From the NCBI GenBank assembly GCA_964596735.1, contig CAZQVF010000003.1, forward strand, positions 42,611 to 106,610: DNA of 64,000 nt, in the 5' to 3' direction. The position numbers and the translations under genes were made by a program. The notes under the pieces were generated by a model. It saw nothing but the letters and a program-made list of their open reading frames with translations. It ran no database searches and was not told the origin of the DNA. Shown here in pieces: positions 974 to 5,922 of this stretch (within the stretch, counting starts at the first letter, position 1; the number at the start of each line of letters is the position of its first letter). Source of the stretch: an uncultured Gammaproteobacteria bacterium (GTDB lineage Bacteria; Patescibacteriota; Patescibacteriia; UBA2591; UBA6264).

Positions 974-1002
974 TTGACAAAAACACAATTTTTTGCTATA
1001 CT
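974..1002 (+). promoter_or_regulatory. Sigma70-type promoter TTGACA-17-TATACT upstream of the DGR target gene.
   Basis: TTGACA lies at 974-979, followed by a 17-nt spacer and TATACT at 997-1002. The RBS AAGGAGGT is at 1063-1070. Confidence 0.5.
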
Positions 1003-1075: not shown

Positions 1076-1840
1076 ATGAAAATGGTGAGCCGCAGTTTAA
1101 CAGTACACAAAGAGCACGAAATTCTTCTCAAGCTGGAAAACGCCGGACTGAATGACAAACTGGCGCAGAAAGTAATTAATTCCAAAGACAATGTGCTGGC
1201 CAAGAAAGTAGTGGCATTAATCCAAAATAACGGATTTATGCCGACAACAACACAAAGACGCGCCAGAGAAATCATGGGTCAAAACTTCTTTGGAATAGAA
1301 GAGGCCATTCGGCATTTTGGAATCAGTCCTTTAAAAAGACAGTTCACGGCTTTAGCAGAAATTCCGTTTACGGAAGGAGTTCTTAAAAAATACAAGGACA
1401 CCCATATCCTAGTAGCCGTATTTCCACTTTCCTTAATCCAGATTCGCAGCAAGGTCGCAGAAAAAGAAAAACTCTTTTACGAGCAAGACTGGTATAGCGA
1501 AGAAAAATTTGCCCATAAAAAAGGCAGATTAAACTGGCGACTAATCAGAAAAACACCTGTTGACAATTCAATCAACAAGAACTGGAGCGAACAACAATCA
1601 TTGCTGAAACAAGATGAATACACACCAACGGTCCAAACAATGACCTATACAATCATTGGACATTACTTGGCTACAGGAGAAAGATTGTTTGAGCGTATTT
1701 ACGTACGCTGTAATGACGTCTCTTCTGACGGCGGCCGTGCCTATGTTGGCAACTTTTTTTCGGATGGTTTGAACGTCCGCAACTTCTGGGGCGGCTTTCG
1801 CAACGATAGCTTGGCAGTCGCCTCGGCTCGGAAGTCCTGA
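1076..1840 (+). CDS. DGR target protein carrying the variable repeat at its C-terminus. The likely true start is ATG 1076; the track ORF starts at 974.
   Basis: A strong SD lies 5 nt upstream of ATG 1076. The last ~40 codons are duplicated downstream as the template repeat, with adenine-specific differences. Confidence 0.7.
   Translation: MKMVSRSLTVHKEHEILLKLENAGLNDKLAQKVINSKDNVLAKKVVALIQNNGFMPTTTQRRAREIMGQNFFGIEEAIRHFGISPLKRQFTALAEIPFTEGVLKKYKDTHILVAVFPLSLIQIRSKVAEKEKLFYEQDWYSEEKFAHKKGRLNWRLIRKTPVDNSINKNWSEQQSLLKQDEYTPTVQTMTYTIIGHYLATGERLFERIYVRCNDVSSDGGRAYVGNFFSDGLNVRNFWGGFRNDSLAVASARKS
1719..1836 (+). repeat. DGR variable repeat (VR) at the 3' end of the target gene.
   Basis: Aligns over 118 bp to 2232-2349. 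There are 14 mismatches, 13 of them at template adenines. The 3' 36 bp are identical and GC-rich (IMH-like). Confidence 0.8.
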
Positions 1841-1878
1841 TATTTGAAATCTTGATTACTTAATGCTCTTGAATCCTT

Positions 1879-1935
1879 GAGTCTCTGCCACATCCACTAA
1901 AAAAGTGGTTTTGCAGCAGAGACTCTTTTCTTTTA
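1879..1935 (+). terminator. Stem-loop gagtctctgc/gcagagactc (1879-1888 and 1916-1925) with a nested ccact-A6-agtgg, followed by a T-run.
   Basis: A 10-bp inverted repeat is seen 40 nt after the target stop. It could be an intrinsic terminator or the DGR target-recognition hairpin. Confidence 0.45.
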
Positions 1936-2231
1936 TTAAAAATAATGTATAATAATGATGTTTGACCAATAAAGATTAGGTTAAGGTTTAATCTTGTCAA
2001 ACGTCTCTTCTTTGATACTTCACCGGAATATCATATGTCTATGGACTGCGATAGTGTGTGAATAAAGACAGAGATAGAACTTCTTGTCTGTTTTTGGTAG
2101 AGATTTTACTCAAAATGCTCTCAAATAAAATACAAGGAAAAGAAGATATGGTCTGTTCTGCCTGATAATGGGCAGAATTTATTAGAGAAAATCTTCAATT
2201 CCCGGTGGTTTAGATGAAAATGGACAAATAT

Positions 2232-2349
2232 TCACTTCTGACGGCAACCGTGCCTATATTGGCAACTTTGATTCGGATGGTTTGAACGTCAACAACAACT
2301 GGGACGACAATCGCAACGATAGCTTGGCAGTCGCCTCGGCTCGGAAGTC
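2232..2349 (+). repeat. DGR template repeat (TR).
   Basis: Invariant, AAC-rich copy of the VR lying between the target gene and the RT. It has adenines at every VR-differing position but one. Confidence 0.8.
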
Positions 2350-2396
2350 ATTATCTGTCAAATTAAAATACTCTGGCTTAAATCAGAGTATTTTAA

Positions 2397-2750
2397 TTAA
2401 ATTTCTTTACAAGATTTTAACCAACCACCAAGCATACGACCAATTTCGTCAATCTCCTTTTGTAATACAACATACTTTCTTGGATCAATGGTCTTGACAT
2501 CCTTCATTAAGCGAATAAAAACCCTTAAAAGATTGAGTTTTGTGCTGGCTTTTTCCAGAGTTGAGACCTTTCTAATTTTGCTCTGCTGACTGGCTAAAAG
2601 AGTTAATTCCAAAATTTCCAAAATCACATTTTCTGATTTTTGCCAAATCGTATAACGATCCTGCCTATTAATATGATTTCTAAAACTATAAAAGGTTTTA
2701 TAAAAATCATAAATGTTTTTTAAAATTGGTGCGTCAAATTTGTTCAACAT
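2397..2750 (-). CDS. avd: Avd-like accessory variability determinant (four-helix-bundle family protein), 117 aa.
   Basis: Basic helical protein with the C-terminal motif EIDEIGRMLGGWLKS typical of the four-helix-bundle / 23S rRNA-IVS family to which Avd belongs. It lies between TR and RT but on the opposite strand. Confidence 0.5.
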   Translation of the reverse strand: MLNKFDAPILKNIYDFYKTFYSFRNHINRQDRYTIWQKSENVILEILELTLLASQQSKIRKVSTLEKASTKLNLLRVFIRLMKDVKTIDPRKYVVLQKEIDEIGRMLGGWLKSCKEI

Positions 2751-3800
2751 ATGAAAATTTTTAAAAATATATTTAATAAAATTATATCCTTGGAAAATTT
2801 ATTTTCAGCATGGGAAAAATTTAAAAAAAATAAAAATAAAAAATTAGATGTTTTAAGATTTGAAATTAATTTAGAACAAAATATTTTTCAATTACATTAT
2901 AATTTAAAAAATCAAACTTATCAACACGGAGAATATCAGTCTTTTTACATTAATGACCCCGTACAACGACATATCCATAAAGCCGTGGTTCGCGACCGCG
3001 TTTTACACCATGCAATTTATAAAATCATCATGCCCATATTTGAACCAACATTCATTTCAAATTCATTTTCATGTCGTCCAGGAAAAGGAACACATAAGGG
3101 TGTATCAACAGTTGAATCTATGCTCTGTAAAGAAAGTTGTAATTACACAATTACATGTTTTGCTCTTAAGGGCGATATTAAAAAATTCTTTGCTTCTGTA
3201 AATCACAAAATACTACTCAAAATCATTAATAAAAAAATAAAAGATGAAAAAACAATGTGGCTAATTAAAGAAGTTATTGGTAGTTTTTCAACTAAAAATA
3301 TTGACTTGCTTAATCTTTATGGTCTGCCAATTGGAAATTTAACCTCCCAGTTATTCGCAAATATTTATATGAATGAATTTGATCAGTTTATAAAGCATAA
3401 ACTTATAGTAAAACAATACGTTAGATATACTGATGATTTTATCATAATCTCAAAAAACAAAGATTACTTAACAAACCTAATCAAATTAATCCAAGAATTC
3501 CTTAAAACAAATCTCGCCCTTAAATTGCATCCTAAAAAAATTTCAATTAAAAAAATAAGTCAAGGAGTAGATTTTCTTGGTTATATATTGTTTCCATATC
3601 ATCGCTTATTGCGAACAAAGACTAAAAAAAGAATTTTTAAAAAAATGAAGCAACAAATATTTTACTACCATCAAGGACATATCAGTGAAAAAACCTTAAA
3701 CCAATCTTTGCAATCTTACTTGGGAACACTTTCACATGCCAATACATATCAGTTAAGTAAAAATTTAAAAAATTATTTTTGGTTCTGGATAACCGACTGA
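2751..3800 (+). CDS. Diversity-generating retroelement reverse transcriptase.
   Basis: N-terminal LENLFSAWEKFKKNK, RT domain-2 CRPGKGTHKG, the DGR-specific LPIGNLTSQLFANIYMNEF motif (IGxxxSQ) and the YxDD box RYTDDF. Confidence 0.85.
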   Translation: MKIFKNIFNKIISLENLFSAWEKFKKNKNKKLDVLRFEINLEQNIFQLHYNLKNQTYQHGEYQSFYINDPVQRHIHKAVVRDRVLHHAIYKIIMPIFEPTFISNSFSCRPGKGTHKGVSTVESMLCKESCNYTITCFALKGDIKKFFASVNHKILLKIINKKIKDEKTMWLIKEVIGSFSTKNIDLLNLYGLPIGNLTSQLFANIYMNEFDQFIKHKLIVKQYVRYTDDFIIISKNKDYLTNLIKLIQEFLKTNLALKLHPKKISIKKISQGVDFLGYILFPYHRLLRTKTKKRIFKKMKQQIFYYHQGHISEKTLNQSLQSYLGTLSHANTYQLSKNLKNYFWFWITD

Positions 3801-4803: not shown

Positions 4804-4872
4804 AACAAAAAATGCTCTTTTTAAAAGCATTCTTGTTATTAAATTATTATTACCAAATAATATAATATATTA

Positions 4873-5922
4873 TTACCAAATAATAATTTTTTTTATTAAT
4901 TGCCAATACGCTCCTAAAACAGGATTAACCACATATTTTAACAAAGGATGAGTAAGCCCAGCAAATTTAAATCTTGGTTCTAAGTATTTAACTAACTCTT
5001 TATCAGTAATCTTTCTTGTCTTTTGAATTCTTCTTCTTTTAATCAAGGTTTTAGGAATCTGCAATAAAACAGTAAAATAGGATTTGATTTTTAACAAAAA
5101 CCAGCCCGAAACTAAACTATAAGCCAAGACCCCCAGTTCCATAAATAACCAGGCAGGAAAAATCAAAATCAACGTAGGAATTTTATAAAACTTTAACAGG
5201 GTTAATAATCTGTTTCTCTCAGACCAATACCAGCAATTTTTAGAAATACCTTCAGTGTATTTATGATAAATCCTCGCCTCCGGCACTAATTTAATATCAT
5301 AATTTAAAAACCGCGCTCTTAAGCAAAGGTCTAAATCTTCATGATATAGAAACAAATCCTTGTCTAAAAACCCAACTTTTTTCAAGGCCGGCACATTTAT
5401 AAAAAGACCAGCCCCTGAACCATAGGTCAGGTTTGTTTCTAGTTTATCAATAACATCTTTCTTAGCTGGCTTTTTATACCCATCACAATAACCAAAACCT
5501 AAATAATGTATTTTGTCTCCAGCGGTTTGAATCTTATCTTTTCCAGGCCAGCAAAGAATCAAGGGCTGAACTGCAAAAACGTTTTTTTGTTTCTCAATCC
5601 CCTTTGTCAAATTCTCCAAGCAGTCTGGCTGACAAACAGTGTCTTGGTTTAAAAGAAAAATATAATCTGCTTTATTTTGCAAAGCTATTTCTATCCCCTG
5701 ATTATTACCCTGGGCAAAGCCCAGATTTTTTTCATTGGCAATTAAATCAACTTGAGGATATTTTTCTTTAATATATTTAACTGAATCGTCTTGCGAACCA
5801 TTATCAACGACAATAATTTCTTGAGGCGATAAAGTCTGCCTGGCTAAACTATTAAAACAATCGGGAAGATATTCCCGACCATTATAGGTAACAATAACAA
5901 TGGCAATTTTAGGTTCTTTCAT
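4873..5922 (-). CDS. Glycosyltransferase family 2.
   Basis: IAIVIVTYNG...DNGSQD...NLGFAQGNN, the GT2 DxD-type N-terminal domain. Confidence 0.75.
   Translation of the reverse strand: MKEPKIAIVIVTYNGREYLPDCFNSLARQTLSPQEIIVVDNGSQDDSVKYIKEKYPQVDLIANEKNLGFAQGNNQGIEIALQNKADYIFLLNQDTVCQPDCLENLTKGIEKQKNVFAVQPLILCWPGKDKIQTAGDKIHYLGFGYCDGYKKPAKKDVIDKLETNLTYGSGAGLFINVPALKKVGFLDKDLFLYHEDLDLCLRARFLNYDIKLVPEARIYHKYTEGISKNCWYWSERNRLLTLLKFYKIPTLILIFPAWLFMELGVLAYSLVSGWFLLKIKSYFTVLLQIPKTLIKRRRIQKTRKITDKELVKYLEPRFKFAGLTHPLLKYVVNPVLGAYWQLIKKIIIW

Follow-up and report, generated by a model that had tools for sequence, protein, structure and literature searches.

An apparently complete diversity-generating retroelement of the Patescibacteria type and the covarying RNA domain beside its template repeat

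Diversity-generating retroelements (DGRs) of the candidate phyla radiation (CPR) were reportedly first surveyed by Paul et al. in 2017. They are abundant, and they raise the questions of which ligands their small targets bind and how priming works where avd is inverted and scant RNA lies 3' of the template repeat (TR). One of their described architectures, B3, has the order TR-(avd)-reverse transcriptase (RT) (Wu et al. 2018, PMC5758913). Here we describe a locus of this kind in a 64,000-nt stretch of contig CAZQVF010000003.1 (assembly GCA_964596735.1, positions 42,611 to 106,610), hereafter the window, to whose numbering all coordinates refer. The locus is very likely a complete, chromosomal and recently active DGR of the CPR/Patescibacteria type.

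A target gene ending in a variable repeat (VR) is followed by a TR RNA gene, an inverted avd and an RT gene. All four canonical parts are intact, and every element of the DGR proposed in an earlier annotation made from the letters alone (the sequence-only reading) was upheld. The order and the inverted avd match architecture B3. The RT may also belong to the Patescibacteria-restricted clade that Roux et al. (2021, PMC8144416) named “DGR clade 2”, as the named relatives of the target found in such a cassette are all from Patescibacteria metagenome-assembled genomes. As in other CPR DGRs, the target is small and has no signal peptide, transmembrane segment or Pfam domain. Nothing essential separates the locus from CPR DGRs, and its arrangement is already known. 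It is ordinary as a DGR; what is new is a structured RNA domain 5' of TR, which is well supported, and an array of TTGA repeats specific to the VR flank. Neither of the two is mentioned in the papers on CPR DGRs that the analysis covered.

With the DGR of Bordetella phage BPP-1 (mtd-avd-TR-brt) the locus shares Avd, adenine mutagenesis at AAY codons, a GC-rich invariant VR end, a target of C-type-lectin (CLec) fold (predicted here) and a stem-loop after TR. RT similarity is of the degree seen among distant DGR RTs, and the residues aligned to R74 and I181 are shared. Unlike in BPP-1, avd lies on the other strand with only ~50 nt between it and TR, and the large structured RNA is found 5' rather than 3' of TR. 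The element is also chromosomal, not phage-borne, and its target has no export or tail-fibre context.

The adenine signature was assessed by aligning the two repeats, which form the top-ranked pair in a repeat search and have a lower-identity extension to 1850/2363. VR and TR align over 118 bases without gaps at an offset of 513, and 13 of their 14 mismatches fall on TR adenines (hypergeometric P = 1.2e-8, given 29 A in 118 nt), the sole exception being TR G2270 / VR T1757. The recomputed alignment returned these counts, the VR positions and the single non-adenine change exactly as the sequence-only reading had claimed. The codon changes from TR to VR are ACT>TCT, AAC>GGC, ATT>GTT, GAT>TTT, AAC>CGC, AAC>TTC, GAC>GGC (twice) and AAT>TTT; the list given earlier was essentially correct, although ACT>TCT had been left out and the GAT codon given as GAC. 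First and second codon positions, whose diversification was also claimed there, hold all 22 adenines of the mutable zone. TR has eight AAY codons, seven of them within the mutable zone and one (AAC at VR 1802) in the invariant tail. Stop codons cannot arise from any adenine substitution within the mutable zone, and the protein space of the 15 mutable codons is 4^8 x 15^7, or ~1.1e13.

Downstream of the last mismatch at 1797, VR and TR are identical up to 1836 (39 nt, 62% GC). A shared GC-rich 3' end had thus been recognized correctly, while its claimed length of 36 nt was too short. Beyond 1836/2349 the copies diverge, with 9 of the 14 following bases matching. The 38-nt 3' end of the repeat occurs twice in the window versus 0 times by chance, and no third copy of the invariant end was found in these 64 kb, so the window holds no additional VR sharing that end. 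Adenine specificity holds across the family, as 585 of 646 mismatches in 37 TR/VR pairs of related loci are at TR adenines. About half of the remaining family mismatches cluster 2-8 nt from the repeat end, resembling the difference between an initiation of mutagenic homing (IMH) sequence and IMH*, and in most relatives a single fixed difference, C to A/G, lies 2-4 nt before the repeat end.

The RT open reading frame (ORF) contains LPIGNLTSQLFANIYMNEF and a YTDD box, both of which had been reported from the letters. Its motif IGNLTSQ has the form [I/V/L]GxxxSQ, the DGR RT signature found in place of QGxxxSP (PMC7826257). A hidden Markov model search, suggested earlier as a check, gave a match to RVT_1 (PF00078), and the closest solved relative in PDB is the Bordetella phage RT, bRT (8ub7, 3.6e-47), which aligns end to end; group II RTs follow at 2e-24. 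There is next to no chance that the enzyme comes from another retroelement (a group II intron, a retron or a defence RT) and that VR and TR are an ordinary duplicated gene end. The top NCBIfam model is a group II RT/maturase, and Drt3a, Drt2 and retron RT models match more weakly, but the scores of 161.8 (cut-off 300), 70.6 (200) and 60.3 (235) leave all group II, retron and DRT models far under their curated cut-offs. Moreover, bRT leads the solved relatives by 23 orders of magnitude, and IGNLTSQ instead of QGxxxSP, the adjacent avd and the adenine-specific, codon-aware mismatches all argue for a DGR.

The 117-aa ORF between TR and RT, previously described as Avd-like, passes the Avd models (Table 1) and lies on the minus strand, which the description had left unsaid. 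This inversion relative to TR and RT recurs in ~40 related loci. The ATG of avd directly abuts that of the RT gene (CATATG), and most of the ~10 related loci with the same junction have the two start codons 0-4 nt apart. Neither the avd nor the RT side of the junction (2745-2756) has a Shine-Dalgarno sequence. Back-to-back starts without such a sequence imply that the avd and RT promoters lie within each other's gene or that the mRNAs are leaderless. The avd/RT region is AT-rich, with 24-29% GC versus 30-43% in its neighbours.

Table 1. Features of the DGR locus in window coordinates
Feature	Position	Strand	Remarks
Target promoter-like site	974-1002	+	TTGACA, 17 nt, TATACT; TG before -10; 11/12 consensus matches (consensus match only)
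Target gene, 254 aa	1076-1840	+	Helical N-terminus ~10-50; core ~58-254, predicted divergent C-type-lectin/FGE-like
VR	1719-1836	+	Mutable zone 1721-1797; invariant GC-rich IMH-like 3' end 1798-1836
(C)TTGA repeats	1838-1880	+	TTGA at 1844, 1852, 1869 and 1877; degenerate TTAA at 1860; spacing 8-9 nt
Hairpin and T-run	1879-1935	+	Fold of VR flank; predicted target-gene terminator
Extended -10 box of TR-RNA promoter	1946-1953	+	TGTATAAT; transcription would start near 1960
Structured RNA domain, ~265 nt, 11 helices	1962-2227	+	Covariation; directly 5' of TR
P7	2084-2095 with 2216-2227		Closes module of P8/9, A-rich single strand and P10/11
P8/9	2099-2121		
Invariant single strand	2124-2134		AAUAAAAUACA
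P10/11	2135-2203		
TR	2232-2349	+	29 adenines, 22 within mutable zone
Linker 3' of TR	2350-2360	+	TCTGTC (2354-2359) complementary to GACAGA (2067-2072)
16-bp stem-loop after TR	2361-2398	+	Position of Bordetella Avd-binding stem-loop; abuts avd stop codon
avd, 117 aa	2397-2750	-	NF033474 DivGenRetAVD 83.1 bits (cut-off 80); PF22296 bAvd 3.2e-19
DGR reverse transcriptase, 349 aa	2751-3800	+	PF00078 3.7e-23

Recent activity was assessed by comparing the window with three near-identical contigs from metagenome assemblies (L001, L002 and L003), the alleles being assembly consensus. L001 differs from the window at 14 sites over ~6.8 kb, 12 of them in VR; L002 (~6.7 kb) and L003 (~3.5 kb) each differ at 8 sites, all in VR. 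TR is identical across all four. Heterogeneity of VR at TR adenines, which the sequence-only reading had proposed to look for, is seen between assemblies. Of the 22 mutable adenines, 16 are changed in one or more of the three VR alleles, and the alleles differ only at TR-adenine positions, apart from a single non-adenine change in two of them each. Three VR alleles with 0-2 other differences per 6.8 kb imply several rewrites while almost no other mutation accumulated, which argues, from these sequence comparisons, that the DGR has been active recently. The exact RT and Avd proteins are present on contigs from several public sources. The two differences of L001 outside VR (3193 and 3203; A148G and N151K) are 10 nt apart in the RT gene and both non-synonymous.

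The two non-adenine changes are G>T at 1757 in the window and T>G at 1744 in L002/L003, and both are located immediately 5' of a TR adenine. In L002 (5001-5669) and L003 (2955-3623), which belong to two JGI metagenome assemblies, the change turns TAT into TAG and, just inside VR, truncates an otherwise identical target to 222 aa (P0122). Either a non-adenine error has disabled the target here, or the stop is an artefact of taking the consensus of a mixed population. The error rate of bRT-Avd is low at non-adenine bases and highest there at G (PMC7826257), and rare non-adenine errors in VR are therefore expected. An ENA contig (P0124, 3517 bp) encodes a 302-aa protein in which VR (1836) is joined to post-TR sequence (2350) with 513 bp missing; either the assembly has collapsed here or VR and TR have truly recombined.

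A scan with one genome per species yielded 78 related loci. The same cassette and gene order occur in ~40 loci/species, and seven loci have two target paralogues, each with a VR. Among loci with a 4-kb flank, avd and RT are missing within 4 kb in about half. Where no DGR is adjacent, the C-terminus of the target still looks diversified and the 3' flank is unchanged in kind; such targets are either orphaned or served in trans from a DGR at another genomic site. DGR loss that leaves orphan, diversified-looking targets seems common in the family. The window could also hold a fossil, a formerly active DGR that no longer works and whose VR/TR differences are old. The nonsense VR allele of the L002/L003 population would fit this, as would the loss just described, with fragments left in several species. 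We consider it improbable, as RT, avd, TR and the RNA domain are all intact in the window and three VR alleles occur among contigs with otherwise 0-2 differences in 6.8 kb.

Loci without the complete cassette include L005, L007, L016, L020, L022, L026, L027, L030, L041 and L054. A C-terminal RT fragment is left in L022 and L030, and a partial RNA domain in L020, L022, L030 and L054. L018 retains the first 25 RT residues only, and L019 has an Avd fragment at which the contig ends. The records of several contigs that carry the cassette or target give Gammaproteobacteria, Angelobacter, Actinobacteria or Verrucomicrobia as their source (L006, L026, L035, L053 and others; P0007; P0053). These non-Patescibacteria labels are probably binning or labelling errors of metagenome-assembled genomes.

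The ~395 nt between the target (gene/terminator) and TR are strongly conserved in relatives whose proteins are only 55-65% identical. This space, overlooked in the sequence-only reading, holds the promoter and a covarying RNA domain of the cassette. In the promoter, TAnnnT (T, A and T at 1948, 1949 and 1953) is invariant in 22 loci and keeps a constant distance from the conserved start of the RNA domain. For the domain itself, the RNAalifold prediction comprises 11 helices and 70 pairs with 96.2% of cells paired, a value that falls to 42-50% when partners are slid by 1-3 columns. Compensatory changes occur at 47 pairs, and none of 500 shuffles reaches any of these measures. A profile of the domain has one match per DGR locus, always abutting TR (1965-2227 being the single match in the window), and the domain stays beside TR even where the whole core, from RNA domain through TR and avd to RT, has the opposite orientation to the target.

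No Rfam family matches the window or 16 related loci at gathering score. Weinberg et al. (2017, PMC5737381) found several motifs beside RT genes and guessed that these might serve DGRs; RT-16 (RF03019) is one of them, and another, RT-10, is the spacer RNA of Bordetella. RT-16 has no match in the window at E up to 10 and none in L013; the RNA of L031 aligns to it end to end with 20.8 bits (gathering score 50, E ~0.8). L031 shares with RT-16 a long closing helix, a short stem-loop, the single-stranded AUAAAAUaCAG, a long stem-loop and GGUG, and RT-16 corresponds to the 3' half of the window-type domain only (P7-P11). This comparison suggests that the domain is at most a distant relative of RT-16. 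The window also matches a group I intron (22.8 bits, E = 0.0013); neither L013 nor L031 does, and the match was taken as chance.

In Bordetella phage, the RNA 3' of TR comprises first an Avd-binding stem-loop, second a strand that pairs with the TR 3' end, priming taking place from a 2'-OH, and third a strand whose pairing partner lies immediately 5' of TR (“cPRT Stop”). A short stem-loop and adenosines, a single-stranded “thumb ring” and a long RT-binding stem-loop then follow (bioRxiv 10.1101/2023.10.23.563531). Stem-loops just 3' of TR were found in 207 of 278 Avd-containing DGRs (Handa et al., bioRxiv 10.1101/2023.10.23.563531). Folding 27 related loci one by one gave such a stem-loop in 26, with differing stem sequences. 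The element order of the window equals that of Bordetella (spacer positions 53-139), but the elements are placed 5' of TR. GACAGA would correspond to the primer strand and the 5' strand of P7, which pairs just 5' of TR, to the cPRT Stop strand; P8/9 would represent the short stem-loop, AAUAAAAUACA the adenosines or thumb ring, and P10/11 the long RT-binding stem-loop.

The putative pairing of GACAGA with the linker was examined across loci. It is paired in 80.6% of cells versus 43-56% when slid, and its covariation score is matched by 4 of 500 shuffles. RNAduplex gives a mean z of -2.5, with 24 of 29 loci below -1.5. Across loci, the covariants are GGATGGAG:CTCCATCC, GATAGAGA:TCTCTATC and GACAGA:TCTGTC. 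These results are suggestive of, and do not prove, a candidate primer/template duplex between 2067-2072 and 2354-2359.

The RNA at 1962-2227 may instead stand outside the RT machinery, as a regulatory leader or stand-alone small RNA carried along with the cassette, the spacer-like elements then lying 3' of TR and antisense to avd. In Bordetella phage, the essential non-template RNA is all 3' of TR bar 20 nt (bioRxiv 10.1101/2023.10.23.563531), and the stem-loop after TR in the window has no clean U-run, so that transcription may extend into antisense avd; support for the linker duplex is also moderate. A separate RNA of this kind nevertheless seems unlikely to us, though it is a more serious contender than a fossil element. 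The domain occurs once per DGR locus and always abuts TR, even in inverted cores, P7 uses the nucleotides immediately 5' of TR, the element order mirrors the Bordetella spacer, and the related motif class RT-16 is found next to RT genes (PMC5737381).

The 3' flank of VR is distinctive as well. The (C)TTGA array begins at the stop codon TGA and runs into the terminator stem, with 3-5 copies at a modal spacing of 8 nt. TTGA occurs on average 3.8 times per 65-nt window after VR in DGR loci and 3.6 times after the stop codon in loci without an adjacent DGR, versus 0.16 times after TR and 0.45 times in random windows of the same loci. The overall mean after the target stop is 3.7 per 65 nt, and the array is present in nearly all relatives (L004-L078), DGR adjacent or not. 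It is a candidate recipient-site signal or 3'-untranslated-region element. A GC-rich hairpin with a T-run is found at the same place in the related loci folded. In the window this hairpin resembles a terminator and is separated from the VR end by ~43 nt that include TTGA repeats, unlike the 4 bp of BPP-1; TR, too, has a stem-loop after it. By analogy, the hairpin at 1879-1935 is a possible counterpart of the inverted repeat after the Bordetella VR.

The target ATG at 1076 is preceded by the Shine-Dalgarno sequence AAGGAGG. Some gene callers start at TTG 974, which yields a 288-aa version (P0001, P0125) with an additional hydrophobic, signal-peptide-like stretch. This TTG falls in the -35 box predicted for the target promoter, and the extension is not conserved in any homologue. 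The TTG-974 start is an annotation artefact and could mislead localisation predictions. No signal-peptide-like N-terminus was found from the conserved ATG, in line with the sequence-only reading, which had called its absence unusual for DGR targets. The opposite applies to the CPR clade, where targets typically have no recognisable transmembrane or other conserved domains (PMC8144416).

No sequence match was found to the target in Pfam, NCBIfam or PDB, as a single sequence or as a profile, and no similarity is detectable to TvpA (2y3c), Mtd (1yu0), TaqVP (5vf4) or proteins of the formylglycine-generating enzyme (FGE)-like and DUF1566-type CLec kinds. The target family is very large (>3000 clusters at 50% identity), and the locus represents it in clean and intact form. 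Full-length relatives with 59-72% identity number at least 710, and there are 3055 cluster representatives at 50% identity (E <= 1e-3). Nearly all members listed are ~190-300 aa, and the usable taxon names are all Patescibacteria, bar a few evident mis-binnings. The conserved core spans residues ~58-254, and the helical N-terminal part is variable or absent in relatives; no match was found for this N-terminal module.

A structural model of the target from close homologues alone was poor. Adding a 30-37% identical subfamily gave a model with a pLDDT of 79 and a pTM of 0.75. In comparisons with this model, the listed values are 8.1 for the Bd2740 C-terminal domain, 7.8 for SenA, 7.4 for pFGE, 7.2 for the Lcl C-terminal domain, 7.0 for TvpA (19% identity), 6.2 for Mtd and 5.5 for TaqVP. 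We conclude with moderate confidence that the target adopts a CLec/FGE-like fold with the variable residues on its C-terminal face, and the prediction thereby agrees with the fold proposed from the letters.

A mechanism can be sketched from these parts. An RNA made from its own promoter (1946-1953) would consist of the ~265-nt 5' domain, the 118-nt TR, the 11-nt linker and the stem-loop. RT-Avd would bind this RNA and copy TR into cDNA, with nucleotides incorporated at random wherever the template has one of the 22 mutable-zone adenines. The cDNA would then replace VR (1719-1836), with the invariant GC-rich end (1798-1836) setting the 3' limit. In this way, 15 codons on the C-terminal face of a CLec/FGE-like domain could be recoded to give ~1e13 proteins without an export signal.

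As for priming, one continuous strand of the 5' domain may pair both with the linker, in a primer-like manner, and with the P7 segment, in a stop-like manner. Between these duplexes TR would form a loop, and the 5' domain would prime synthesis in the manner of retrons. By analogy with Bordetella, such a permuted DGR RNA with TR looped out between duplexes to one upstream strand is a possibility that we put somewhat short of even. The fuller proposal for B3 DGRs, the dominant type in the CPR, is tentative and slightly more doubtful: the permuted 5' domain would supply the priming strand (GAYRGAGA), the P7 stop duplex and the RT-binding stem-loops, and the CTTGA repeats would mark the recipient site. 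If it holds, the priming nucleotide would lie 5' of the template in the same RNA, as in retron msr-msd. The likeness would be one of topology only: both the RT and its accessory protein are of DGR type, and so is the outcome, the rewriting of a gene. Features of the locus that lend themselves to mutation are the promoter, the covarying RNA with its 11 helices, the candidate primer duplex and the repeat array specific to VR; with them, the questions of priming and target recognition become testable in a reconstituted system.

Several observations count against an active DGR that works as outlined. The three VR alleles are assembly consensus sequences rather than reads. The nonsense change of L002/L003 at a TR thymine and the window's change at a TR guanine mean that VR change is not wholly adenine mutagenesis, and the premature TAG means that not every copy of the target stays whole. 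The window's own repeat shows no internal difference of the IMH versus IMH* kind, the copies being identical up to 1836/2349. The primer-like duplex competes with the invariant intradomain helix P3, and its support is moderate. No promoter could be assigned to avd or RT, the scan having found 16 sites versus 13.6 in shuffled sequence. The VR part of the target model is of low confidence, and Foldseek gave nothing significant for the model against PDB (best E = 0.17); its non-significant list comprises the same CLec/FGE-type kinds of protein as named above.

The 5' leader of the target contains a hairpin, CCCGAGCGACTCGGG (1039-1053), that is near-verbatim in about a dozen relatives. The leader region corresponds to 1018-1053 in the window and lies ~70-150 nt upstream of the target in relatives (L005, L007-L010, L014, L018, L020, L022, L029-L031, L033 and L034). 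A larger leader hairpin with the conserved stem ATGAGACGAGCG...CGCTCGTCTCAT occurs in about one-third of the loci and is absent from the window. Leader hairpins occur regardless of an adjacent DGR and have no Rfam match.

Beyond the cassette, no conserved neighbours were found in related loci, where a 95-aa ORF was without a match. The neighbouring HIT gene matched in one locus (L069) only, besides the near-identical contigs. Between the convergent HIT and glycosyltransferase genes, a 23-nt unit (TAAATTATTATTACCAAATAATA), tandem and self-complementary, is located at 4840-4889 and is probably a bidirectional terminator.

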